Part shown: positions 59,001 to 62,000 of the stretch, piece after piece
Position numbering within the stretch: position 1 is the stretch's first letter
Layout: each line of letters begins with the position of its first letter
From: Escherichia coli
GTDB taxonomy: Bacteria; Pseudomonadota; Gammaproteobacteria; Enterobacterales; Enterobacteriaceae
Length of the DNA: 64,000 nt
Direction: 5' to 3' (one strand)
NCBI RefSeq assembly: GCF_050920415.1
Contig: NZ_CP169309.1
Position numbers: made by a program

Positions 59001-62000
59001 GCCAATCGGATAGCCGCGTCCGGGGTGTAAATCTGGCATCCCTACTACGCGTTGCATGTCGGGTAAATTTGCCGTGATGTGTAATTGTTGGATCGCTGAA
59101 CTCTCGATCCACAGGTCATCAGATGCAATGGTAAATACCGCATCGGATAAGGGACGAATATATTTGCCCATGTATCATTCCATTTATACTCGTCATACTT
59201 CAAGTTGCATGTACTGCGACTGCGTTCGTTCACCCCAGTCACTTACTTTAGTAAGCTCCTGGGGATTCACTCGCTTGTCGCCTTCCTGCAACTCGAATTA
59301 TTTAGAGTATATAAATATAAAAATCAGGAAATGGCAGACGAATCCAGGGCAAGAAAAAAAGAATTAATCCTGGAAAGGTCTGCAAAGAGTCATTGATAAA
59401 GGATTTTTCATGATTTACCTCCTTGCAGTTTGTGGAATAAGAAAACGCGCACATATTAGGCGGGCGTTATTTTCATTGCAAGCTGGATTTAGTGTTGCGG
59501 TTTATATCGCATATGAAAATTAGTAAACCACGCTCCCCGGCATTCAACGCGCTGCTGCTTAACTGTCTGAAAACCATAACGTTCAAAAAAGGGTTTTGCG
59601 GTTATGCTGGCGTCCACCGTAAGTTCGGATTCAGACTTAATCAAAGGTTTTAACAAAGCGCTGGCAACCCCACGGCGGGTATATTCAGGGTCAACAAATA
59701 ACATATCGATATAATGTTCAATGCGGGAAATAAAACCAACCGGTTGTGCATTAATCACAGCAACCCGCACTTGTGATTTCGCGAGTTTCTCTTTCCATCG
59801 ATGTTCATCAATCTGCGCCCAGGCGGCAATTTGTTGTGGTGAATAATGCTGACTGGCGGTCATCGTAACCGCTCTAATAAAAATAGCGCATAGTTGCTGA
59901 AAATCGCCAGGCTGATAGTCTCTTATTTGTATATTATTCATAATCCCAACACCAGTTGTCTTTCCATTTGCGGATCCAGCAACGTCACATGCAGCCCCAC
60001 CAGCCGCACACCGCGCCCGCCACGGCGTTCATCCCAGGTTTTACGCGCAGTGGCGATCAAGTCAGCTTTATTCAGCCGCGGCCAGACGTGTTCCTGAGTG
60101 GTTTGCTGAAAATCGTCGAACTTTAATTTCACCCCCTGGCGGGCAATCAGCAAATCAGGTTTTACCTTTGCCAGACGGCGTTCAAGTTCCGGATACAACC
60201 GCTCGATAATCGCTTCACATTCAGACCAATGATGAATATCTTCCGCCATCGTGCGTTCCACACCAACGGATTTTCGCAACCTTTCGCTGTTAACGTCGCG
60301 CTCGTCAATGCCCTGGCTACGCTCCCACAAAATGCGGCCAAATTTGCCAAAGCGTTTAAGCAACGTCACCAGATCACACTTTTGTACATCGCCACAGGTT
60401 CGTAGCCCCATCGCTTCCAGTTTTGCCGCCGAGACTTTGCCGACACCGGGAATTTTTGCCAGCGGTAAGGTTTGCAGAAATGCCGGAACTTCTGCCGGCG
60501 TAATCACAAACTGACCGTTGGGTTTATTCATGTCTGAGGCGATTTTGGCGAGAAACTTGACCGGCGCAACGCCCGCAGACGCCGTCAGTTGCAGCTCGTT
60601 GAAGATCGTCTGGCGGATTTCCTGAGCGATAAGGGTCGCAGAGCCGTGGCAATGTACGCTGTCGGTGACGTCGAGATAAGCTTCATCCAGCGACAACGGC
60701 TCAATACGCGATGTGTAGCGAGAGAAGATTTCGCGGATATGATTTGACGCTTCTTTGTAGGCGTCAAAGCGCCCTGGAAGCAAGGTGAGATGCGGACACA
60801 GTTTGAGCGCCATGCCGGTTGGCATTGCGCTACGCACGCCAAATTTACGCGCGGGATAATTGGCGGTGCTGATCACCCCCCGGCGTTCGCGGCTGCCGCC
60901 AATAGCAATAGGGATATCGCGCAGGGCGGGATTGTCGCGCATCTCCACCGCGGCGAAAAAGCAGTCCATATCCACATGAATGATTTTACGCATTGCTCAC
61001 CTCTCAATACTGGTAAAGTATACAGTGATTTCAGAGTTTGAGAAATGCGTAAAGATTCAGCATTTAACGCGTTCGCTGCGAAAGCACCTGCTGCTTATCC
61101 AGCTTTTTCACCAACGGCTGCACCACCTTATCCCCATGCTGACCAAAATATTGATACAACGTATCGGACGCGCTTTTGGTGAGCACCATAATCTCAATGC
61201 GCCGGTTACCCGCGCTTTGCGGATTTTTGGCATCCAGCAGCATCTGGTCCGCCATCGCGCTCACCTGCATTACTTTATCTTCCGGCATCCCGGCGTCTTC
61301 CAGCACCCGACGGGCCGAGAGCGCGCGGTCACCCGAAAGGTTCCAGTTGTTGTAGATATTGCTTTTATAGGCCATCGCATCGGTATGCCCGGTAATAATA
61401 ATTTTGTTATCGAGCGAGTCGAATACCGGCGCGAGCTCCACCAGCAGCGTTTTAAAGAACGGCATAATCTTCGCGCTGCCGCGTTCAAACATATTGCGGT
61501 TCTGGTCATCTTTAATCAGCACGCGTAATCCCTGCGGAACAATCTCCATCTCCAGATTGGCTTCCATATGCGCATCGCGGGCGATGGTGTTGATACTGGT
61601 CGCCAGCTCGCCAAGCTCAGTGGCGGACTTCTTCTTCAGTAGCGCCGTTTTCTCGTTGACGTCGCGGGCTTTTTTCTCCGTCTCTTCCGGCACCGCCACG
61701 GTGGCAGGTTTCAGCGGATGCGTCGGGCTGATTTTATTTAACGGCGATAGCCCGCCGCCGTTGAAAATCGACTGCCCGTGCAGCGCGGCGATAATGCTTT
61801 CACGCTCGGATTTACTGACGCTGTTGACAATCCACAGCGTCATAAACAGCGCCATCATTGCCAAAGTAAAGTCGGCGAACGCCACCTTCCACGCCCCGCC
61901 GTGATGCCCGGCATGATTCTTTTTGATCTGCCGCCGGACGATGGTGGTTTTTGCCCCTCGCTCGCGGCGGTTGCCCGTCTTCCTCATGCTTATTCTTGCT

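Follow-up and report, generated by a model that had tools for sequence, protein, structure and literature searches.

A two-gene dinB–yafP operon in Escherichia coli that differs from the K-12 operon by exactly 759 bp

In Escherichia coli K-12, the gene for DNA polymerase IV (Pol IV) belongs to the four-gene operon dinB-yafN-yafO-yafP (McKenzie 2003 and Singletary 2009, as described in papers citing them), in which yafN and yafO form a toxin-antitoxin (TA) pair. A two-gene junction, with yafP directly following dinB, has been described in CFT073 and in ECOR strains (PMC3105422), and known carriers of the two-gene operon are CFT073, UTI89, all ECOR strains of group B1 and part of those of B2 and D (PMC3105422; PMC7167474). 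Gutierrez et al. (2011) reported the same ATGA junction in 40–50% of E. coli and explained it by a deletion (PMC3105422), Fraikin et al. (2020) took yafNO to have been inserted (PMC7167474), and PMC10790755 belongs to the further literature behind the two-gene reading of the operon. In CFT073, yafP is co-transcribed with dinB and SOS-induced from the dinB promoter, and YafP interacts functionally with Pol IV (PMC3105422). A polymorphism of the same kind, relA-mazEF-mazG versus relA-mazG, places a type II TA pair between two host cistrons in some strains (PMC7167474); its genes and TA family are unlike those of dinB–yafNO–yafP, and the likeness is drawn from the review's description. The dinB–yafP polymorphism and both of its evolutionary readings are already in the literature; what we add is the exact 759-bp difference with its 7-bp repeat, the colinearity with outgroup junctions, the age of the insertion and pairs of B2 genomes with and without the cassette.

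The window, that is, the whole 64-kb stretch of DNA analysed here, carries a dinB–yafP operon (Table 1) flanked by the Flag-2 cluster and the rtcB-prfH pair, both of them intact. Its DinB is 99.7% identical in amino acid sequence to that of K-12 and contains the Pfam domains IMS, IMS_HHH, IMS_HHH_1 and IMS_C, while YafP is 96% identical to its K-12 counterpart and matches the GNAT family Acetyltransf_10 (E = 4.5e-20). Compared with the K-12 operon, dinB, yafP, the core of the LexA box and the promoter-like site are all conserved, and the operon occupies the same chromosomal position, between lafU and the rtcB/prfH region. Compared with the two-gene operon of the CFT073 type, the gene content, gene order, 4-nt ATGA overlap, upstream LexA box and lack of yafN and yafO are the same, and the nucleotide haplotype is the sole difference. 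A conserved 15-codon ORF (59364..59411) lies upstream of the rtcB-prfH pair; a literature search for a paper giving the sequence of this 15-aa peptide returned nothing.

Table 1. Coordinates of the dinB–yafP operon features in the window
Feature	Position	Strand	Description and basis
dinB	59938..60993	−	DNA polymerase IV, first gene of the operon; 351 aa; TGA at 59940..59938; ORF list, Pfam, RefSeq annotation
yafP	59489..59941	−	GNAT-family N-acetyltransferase, second and last gene of the operon; 150 aa; ATG at 59941..59939; ORF list, Pfam, RefSeq annotation
ATGA overlap	59938..59941	−	yafP start codon and dinB stop codon, four bases common to both genes; sequence
ATTATGA	59938..59944	−	single copy of the 7-mer that flanks yafNO on both sides in four-gene strains; empty-site sequence
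LexA (SOS) box	61008..61027	−	CACTGTATACTTTACCAGTA; core CTG-N10-CAG at 61010..61025
Sigma-70 promoter-like site	61017..61044	−	TTCTCA, 16 nt, TATACT; consensus scan, 9/12 matches

On the minus strand the junction reads ...GGG ATT ATG AAT..., and both the ORF list and the sequence bear out the overlap of the dinB stop codon with the yafP start codon. An earlier note on this DNA had described dinB as fused directly to yafP; the direct adjacency stands, but the two reading frames differ, so the genes overlap rather than encode a fused protein. The same note gave the K-12 gene order, which holds, and claimed that the TA module is absent here, which proved correct: with the K-12 YafN and YafO proteins as tblastn queries against the whole window the best match had E = 1.4, the 755-bp K-12 segment between dinB and yafP (L002:3643-4397) gave only chance blastn matches of 19–22 nt in the window, and the ORF list holds no yafN or yafO ORF between dinB and yafP. 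The dinB operon in the window is thus of the two-gene type common in E. coli, not of the four-gene type of K-12.

An assembly collapse that removed the TA pair, or a move of the pair to another place in the genome, would give the same local picture, and the search, confined to the 64-kb window, found nothing in favour of either. The window is 100% identical to the finished RefSeq chromosome of E. coli MFDS1022581 (NZ_CP169399.1), whose annotation likewise has dinB and yafP overlapping with zero genes between them, and 2,569 independent complete genomes share the junction. Where yafNO is present, the median copy number per genome is one, and the features annotated as yafN and yafO among the matches listed are consistent with the dinB locus. 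We therefore regard artefact or relocation as very improbable.

The LexA box was described beforehand as intact, which holds: its core, CTGTATACTTTACCAG, is the same as in K-12 and is the single occurrence of CTG-N10-CAG in 59400..61100, while the 20-mer differs from K-12 at one flanking base, the last, which is changed from G to A. The −10 element of the promoter-like site sits within the box; by analogy with the K-12 dinB promoter, the site presumably acts as the promoter of dinB. Transcription, LexA control and coupling in this strain are carried over from work on K-12 and CFT073, and on the strength of the sequence we infer that yafP is co-transcribed with dinB and SOS-induced from its promoter. 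The LexA-repressed promoter would then yield one transcript encoding Pol IV followed by the GNAT acetyltransferase YafP. No intrinsic terminator was found 3' of yafP on the minus strand.

The start and stop codons overlap on what would be a single mRNA, the arrangement of a translationally coupled pair. The calculated energy of the duplex with the anti-Shine-Dalgarno sequence is −4.0 kcal/mol upstream of yafP and −7.1 kcal/mol for dinB, compared to +0.4 kcal/mol for K-12 yafP. With the ATG overlapping the TGA and Shine-Dalgarno pairing upstream nearly absent, translation of yafP is most likely coupled to that of dinB through termination–reinitiation, whereby ribosomes terminating on dinB would reinitiate on the spot and produce YafP. 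Gutierrez et al. failed to find a Shine-Dalgarno sequence and put forward frameshifting instead of reinitiation (PMC3105422). For this strain the consequences would be small: it carries the allele that is commoner in B1, and its YafP and Pol IV should function like those of CFT073.

Alignment with K-12 shows how clean the junction is, as the earlier note had said. The alignment and pairwise comparisons agree on an indel of exactly 759 bp; the position of the junction comes from an alignment of several sequences, as a global MAFFT alignment of the window with K-12 placed the gap wrongly. The 759 bp absent from the window comprise a 51-nt yafN leader, yafN (294 nt), yafO (399 nt), a spacer and one copy of ATTATGA. 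In K-12 the left junction is GGGATTATGA|TGTATAC and the right junction TTTATATTATGA|ATAAC; yafP starts 9 nt after yafO, whereas in the window it starts on the dinB stop codon. ATTATGA is found at both ends of the cassette in K-12, E. whittamii and SCPM-O-B-8794 and once in the window, i.e. a repeat at both ends and a single copy in the empty site, as in an insertion with target-site duplication. Reading the cassette ends in the alignment revealed no terminal inverted repeats, and the cassette consists only of yafN and yafO, with no recognisable mobility machinery. With the left copy of the repeat fixed as Leu-stop and the ATGA of the right copy fixed as the start codon and first base of codon 2, only three positions are free, and the 7-bp repeat could be partly coincidental.

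Among 5,426 complete E. coli genomes, the continuous dinB–yafP junction occurs in 2,569 (47%) and yafNO in 2,847 (52%), the two groups together (5,416) accounting for all genomes that match the dinB–yafP query. For the 1.8-kb region of the window, the next best match among the matches listed from these genomes is about 95.4% identical. The locus offers a natural and clean case of a TA cassette inside a host operon, with occupied and empty sites at about 50% each in one species, which makes it convenient for studying the gain, loss and exchange of chromosomal TA cassettes.

Outside E. coli, no TA module separates dinB from the yafP that follows it in Citrobacter amalonaticus, Kluyvera sichuanensis, Raoultella terrigena and E. 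marmotae; Escherichia sp. MOD1-EC7003 is another two-gene case. In C. amalonaticus, R. terrigena and K. sichuanensis the yafP ortholog lies immediately 3' of dinB and is followed by pepD-gpt-frsA; nqr is the upstream neighbour of dinB in Kluyvera and Raoultella. The gene pairs of these three genera differ from that of the window in having no overlap, with a TAA or TAG stop codon, a spacer of 2–5 nt and then ATG, and their YafP is only 55–58% identical. The distance from the dinB stop codon to the codons for IR[DE]Y of YafP is nevertheless 11 nt in the window, MOD1-EC7003, E. marmotae, C. amalonaticus and R. terrigena alike, and the junction of the window aligns without gaps with the TA-free junctions of Citrobacter and Raoultella. 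This sampling is thin, with one genome for each outgroup; a YafP search of species-representative genomes with strict 8-mer peptide patterns returned 5 loci and missed E. fergusonii, E. albertii and E. ruysiae. The four-gene operon of E. fergusonii is known here from the literature (PMC3105422) and the other two species lie outside the sample.

The cassette itself is found far from E. coli. A metagenomic enterobacterial lineage, represented by loci L030 and L031, has the order nqr-dinB-yafN-yafO-yafP-pepD and shares the left junction TGA|TGTATAC; its synonymous distances from K-12 are saturated (dS 1.6 for dinB, 1.4 for yafN and >4 for yafO). The junction alignment shows no recognisable right-hand repeat in this lineage, which leaves a single ancient insertion with target duplication short of proof. 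A further locus (L039) has dinB-yafNO-pepD without yafP. Homologs of YafNO with 67–69% identity occur at unrelated loci in Klebsiella variicola, a Pectobacteriaceae genome and others, whereas at least three genus-level lineages have a cassette of the yafNO type right behind the dinB stop codon, which hints that this TA family prefers the 3' end of dinB. One E. coli four-gene sequence (L040) was discarded since it showed systematic G-to-A changes and probably derives from chemically converted reads.

Within Escherichia, the two states are interspersed on both the dinB tree and the yafP tree and occur together on at least three local flank haplotypes. Between the B2 strains N1420, with four genes, and RM14723, with two, there are 5 differences in about 2,384 flank positions besides the exact 759-bp indel, and no cluster of imported SNPs lies beside the junction. 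SNPs up to 150 bp from the junction, on both sides, show no association with the two- or four-gene state, a pattern that recurrent deletion and recombination would share, and SNPs less than 30 bp away are rare. The cassette also decays in part: yafO alone is deleted in Escherichia sp. E1V33, at a 4-bp TTAT microhomology, and FDAARGOS_1291 has an internal stop in yafO, making it a pseudogene. E. whittamii has four genes, and its yafNO nests inside E. coli diversity while its flanks do not: relative to K-12, 10 of 693 sites differ in yafNO but 95 of 1,509 flank sites do (p = 4e-10), and the synonymous differences are 8/144 and 75/345, respectively (p = 8e-8), which, like the interspersed states, speaks for exchange between lineages. 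Across 11 four-gene loci, synonymous diversity is 0.043 in yafO, 0.101 in yafN, 0.179 in dinB and 0.134 in yafP, a trough centred on yafO. We considered this trough as a decisive sign of a young cassette and rejected it, since an insert present in half of the population is expected to be less diverse than the flanks that all share. The window itself has a deep-branching two-gene haplotype, whose nearest relative, 2020CK-00188, is also two-gene; no four-gene relative of this flank haplotype was seen.

Taken together, we consider it quite probable that the window carries a coupled two-gene allele and that yafNO was in origin an insertion, old, and later lost repeatedly and/or exchanged. The gapless colinearity with Citrobacter and Raoultella identifies the two-gene junction as an empty-site structure and hence yafNO as an insertion in origin, a reading that the YafNO relatives at unrelated loci in other genera also support. 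The insertion is old, since yafNO occupies this very position in a lineage outside Escherichia as well. The incoming cassette would have duplicated the last 7 nt of dinB, the K-12 yafP start codon lying in the duplicated copy; afterwards the cassette would have been lost repeatedly by precise deletion between the repeats and/or carried between lineages by homologous recombination. The earlier note had left the TA-free state here as either ancestral or a precise loss, and the evidence fits that pair of alternatives without choosing between them for this strain, the sequence of its allele fitting both a site never occupied and one emptied again. The model of Gutierrez et al. (2011), to which we give an even chance, starts from a four-gene ancestor in which illegitimate recombination or replication slippage removed the cassette between the ATTATGA copies and recreated the ATGA. 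It accounts for a 7-bp direct repeat that bounds exactly the absent 759 bp, for the four-gene operons of E. fergusonii and E. whittamii, and for the saturated non-Escherichia lineage, which places the cassette before E. coli. The near-identical B2 haplotypes with and without it point to recurrent precise deletion, and the three or more flank haplotypes with both states and the damaged yafO copies of E1V33 and FDAARGOS_1291 argue in the same direction. However, short-tract homologous recombination of either allele would give the same pattern, given the scarcity of SNPs in the 30 bp next to the junction, E. marmotae and MOD1-EC7003 are two-gene, and so are both the window haplotype and 2020CK-00188.

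Alternatively, in line with Fraikin et al. (2020), this haplotype may never have had yafNO, the cassette having been inserted elsewhere and spread by recombination, which we judge somewhat less probable than even. Such a retained empty site agrees with the colinear TA-free junctions, with TA-free dinB-yafP in four outgroup or basal taxa, with the deep-branching position of the two-gene window haplotype, with the contrast between yafNO and its flanks in E. whittamii and with the lower synonymous diversity of yafNO. The last point, however, gives no polarity, as reduced diversity is expected for an insert that about 52% of genomes carry; the B2 pairs speak for de novo loss, and a lineage no closer than Citrobacter has the cassette at this site with its divergence saturated, which makes the insertion older than E. 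coli. A joint reading falls just short of an even chance in our estimate: the right-hand ATTATGA would be a target duplication, copied from the last 7 nt of dinB, the ATGA-linked two-gene operon the pre-insertion state and the yafP start of K-12 a duplicated dinB end, combined with a preference of yafNO for the 3' end of dinB. If the duplication reading is true, the polarity at the root would run opposite to the published one, in which the four-gene operon is ancestral and a deletion produced the overlap. As a minor observation on the proteins, one cluster at the 90% level mixes YafO and YafP. The turnover of TA cassettes can be followed concretely here through the 7-bp repeat, the colinearity with outgroups and the loss of the toxin gene alone in E1V33.

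In the window the dinB operon consists of dinB and yafP alone, on the − strand, with the junction reading GGG ATT ATG AAT and the yafP ATG (59941..59939) overlapping the dinB TGA (59940..59938); because the two frames differ, the genes overlap and no fused protein arises. The earlier note had described this shared ATGA, which gene coordinates and sequence bear out, together with an intact LexA box and an absent toxin–antitoxin (TA) module. The box core, CTGTATACTTTACCAG at 61010..61025, is the same as in K-12 and is overlapped by a promoter-like site. No YafN/YafO-like sequence was detected in the 64-kb window, at the junction or elsewhere, by tblastn (best E = 1.4), and the segment lying between dinB and yafP in K-12 gave only chance matches in blastn. 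At 100% identity, the window matches the E. coli MFDS1022581 chromosome (NZ_CP169399.1), whose RefSeq annotation has yafP and dinB overlapping with no gene in between. The two-gene arrangement is confirmed, and it is an ordinary, already published one.

By homology with K-12 and the published two-gene strain CFT073, LexA would repress a promoter whose -10 element sits within the SOS box, and dinB and yafP would be carried on a single mRNA. As the anti-Shine-Dalgarno pairing upstream of yafP is weak (-4.0 kcal/mol, vs -7.1 for dinB), the ATGA overlap most likely provides termination-reinitiation coupling; Gutierrez et al. (PMC3105422) suggested frameshifting instead for the two-gene junction.

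Features of the window discussed in the text, with positions and strand
Feature	Position	Strand	Remarks
IS1	1239..1936		
'beta family protein' and sce7726-family pair	30082..31711		non-core prophage genes
KAP-family NTPase	35031..36362		non-core prophage gene
IS009 RNA	35940..36140		Rfam match
Prophage integrase	47491..48609		
prfH	57421..58035	−	intact; rtcB-prfH pair spans 57421..59171
rtcB	58032..59171	−	intact, 379 aa
~70-nt segment	about 59220..59295	−	yafP-rtcB spacer; strong hairpin 59233..59264
15-codon ORF	59364..59411	−	consensus Shine-Dalgarno AGGAGG at 59418..59423
yafP	59489..59941	−	ORF list; YafP 96% identical to K-12 protein; expected Pfam domains
dinB	59938..60993	−	ORF list; DinB 99.7% identical to K-12 protein; expected Pfam domains
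lafU	61064..61987	−	Flag-2, intact
motA-like gene	61990..62853	−	Flag-2
FliA-like sigma factor gene	62866..63582	−	Flag-2

Of 5,426 complete E. coli genomes, 2,847 contain yafNO DNA, and a 400-bp query across the two-gene junction finds a continuous match in 2,569; the counts sum to 5,416, which is every genome matching the dinB–yafP query, and the two-gene allele is therefore present in 47% of complete genomes. According to a 2023 survey (PMC10790755), the prevalence of YafO is lower in phylogroups C, B1 and G, as it is in ST131 and ST73. Gutierrez et al. (PMC3105422) proposed that the ATGA junction arose when two ATGA sequences recombined and deleted the intervening DNA, and held the four-gene state to be ancestral because E. 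fergusonii carries four genes; Fraikin, Goormaghtigh and Van Melderen (2020, PMC7167474) placed the emphasis the opposite way.

Exactly 759 bp distinguish two-gene loci from the K-12 locus and from all other four-gene loci examined. The K-12 junctions, GGGATTATGA|TGTATAC on the left and TTTATATTATGA|ATAAC on the right, indicate that this yafNO cassette is bounded on both sides by a 7-bp direct repeat, ATTATGA, and not merely by ATGA; the window holds a single copy (59938..59944). In E. marmotae, yafP directly follows dinB with the identical ATGA overlap and no TA pair. Nor does a TA pair separate dinB from the yafP ortholog in Citrobacter amalonaticus (dinB TAA, 5 nt, yafP ATG), Kluyvera sichuanensis (TAA, 2 nt, ATG) and Raoultella terrigena (TAG, 2 nt, ATG), all three within a conserved dinB-yafP-pepD-gpt-frsA context, from which E. 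marmotae departs in having rtcB-prfH after yafP, as in the window. Counted from the dinB stop, the codons for the conserved YafP motif IR[DE]Y come after 11 nt in the window, the Escherichia sp. strain MOD1-EC7003, E. marmotae, C. amalonaticus and R. terrigena, and after 8 nt, one codon fewer, in Kluyvera; the shared spacing implies that the Escherichia two-gene junction is gaplessly colinear with the TA-free junctions of other genera. Judged from the sequence, the ATTATGA preceding yafP in four-gene strains would correspond to a second copy of the dinB end. YafNO homologs of 67-69% identity lie at unrelated loci in Klebsiella variicola, a Pectobacteriaceae genome and others, as expected of a mobile TA family. 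We favor a model in which the site began empty, an old yafNO insertion duplicated 7 nt of the dinB end, and the cassette afterwards underwent repeated loss and exchange among lineages.

The insertion appears old. Two gut metagenome scaffolds of an enterobacterial lineage (L030/L031, 1597..3858) have the order nqr-dinB-yafN-yafO-yafP-pepD-gpt-frsA, in which the cassette directly follows the dinB stop (TGA|TGTATAC) and its leader is homologous. Their synonymous divergence from K-12 is saturated (dS 1.6 for dinB, 1.4 for yafN and >4 for yafO), implying that the cassette has occupied the site for about as long as the lineages have been separate. A short contig from outside Escherichia (L039, 2..1076) reads dinB-yafNO-pepD, with yafP missing; in these non-Escherichia orthologs immediately 3' of dinB, YafO is 74-85% identical. 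An E. coli-like dinB-yafNOP contig (L040, Logan SRR27475577) was rejected as a natural variant owing to systematic G-to-A changes (GGGATTATGA, for example, reads AAAATTATAA), and probably stems from reads that were damaged or chemically converted.

Both states occur within Escherichia: E. whittamii and E. coli SCPM-O-B-8794 are four-gene and MOD1-EC7003 is two-gene. On neighbour-joining dinB and yafP trees of 24 loci, four-gene and two-gene loci intermingle completely, and none of the SNPs lying up to 150 bp from the junction is associated with the state. N1420 (four-gene) and RM14723 (two-gene), from one B2 haplotype family, are set apart by the exact 759-bp indel and by only 5 flank differences in ~2.4 kb, among which no imported SNP cluster is seen. 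Such a pattern is expected after a precise de novo deletion, although short-tract recombination could also produce it. The cassette also decays toxin-first: Escherichia sp. E1V33 (L003, 3624..4001) has dinB-yafN-yafP, yafO alone being deleted at a 4-bp TTAT microhomology, so that yafN persists as an orphan antitoxin inside the dinB operon beside the initial 26 nt of yafO, and in FDAARGOS_1291 (L014, 935..1333) yafO has an internal stop.

Mean dS across 11 four-gene loci is 0.179 for dinB, 0.101 for yafN, 0.043 for yafO and 0.134 for yafP, a diversity trough centered on yafO. Between K-12 and E. whittamii, 10/693 cassette sites differ vs 95/1,509 flank sites (p = 4e-10), as do 8/144 vs 75/345 synonymous sites (p = 8e-8), and the cassette of E. 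whittamii falls inside the diversity of E. coli. The low diversity and the nesting imply a shallower history for the cassette than for its flanks, which fits spread by recombination and is also expected of any insert present in half the population, and thus does not settle polarity.

The either/or of the earlier note, an ancestral TA-free state with yafNO inserted elsewhere or a precise loss here, was sound. On the dinB tree, the window's haplotype and 2020CK-00188 branch outside E. whittamii and MOD1-EC7003, and only two-gene relatives of this deep-branching haplotype were seen. We consider it an even call that this haplotype was once occupied and then re-emptied; that it simply kept the original empty site is a serious possibility, though we would not bet on it.

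Downstream of yafP, 77 nt 3' of its stop, lies a 15-codon ORF encoding MKNPLSMTLCRPFQD in the window and MTNPLSMTLCRPFQD in K-12 and most other loci; the intact rtcB-prfH pair (both truncated pseudogenes in K-12) follows about 190 nt further on. Across 25 Escherichia loci, among them those of E. whittamii and E. marmotae, the ORF hardly varies in position or peptide, although the genes next to it differ by 4-6%. A predicted hairpin (CAGAC/CCAGG ... CCTGG/GTCTG) takes in its last codons, and its Shine-Dalgarno sequence is predicted to pair with a downstream UUUCCU. The ORF has no RefSeq annotation, and a literature search for its peptide sequence found no paper. It is a candidate leader peptide of the RtcB2-PrfH operon, a system reported to repair ribosomes damaged by colicin E3; one RtcB2-PrfH paper that was checked mentions no leader or upstream ORF. 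The ~70-nt segment in the yafP-rtcB spacer, with its hairpin CCCCAG..CTTACT AA AGTAAG..CTGGGG, is present in the window and K-12 and absent from E. marmotae and E. whittamii, and looks like a small inserted repeat element.

Divergence from K-12 is unusually high across almost all of the proA-lafU segment (48814..62020), where dS is 0.16-0.32 for proA, proB, phoE, crl, frsA, pepD, dinB and lafU and lower for gpt (0.07) and yafP (0.11), despite which the proteins are nearly identical. Identity of at least 99% in dinB-yafP or proBA is found in only 1-2 of the 5,426 genomes; the segment could mark a deep lineage or else have been introgressed. The Flag-2 lateral flagellar genes, fliL included, are intact (61064..64000, −), whereas K-12 retains only a shortened lafU and an flhA fragment. 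A lambdoid prophage (about 6050..48609), whose non-core genes include two DNA methyltransferases, is integrated beside tRNA-Thr (thrW, 48624..48699).
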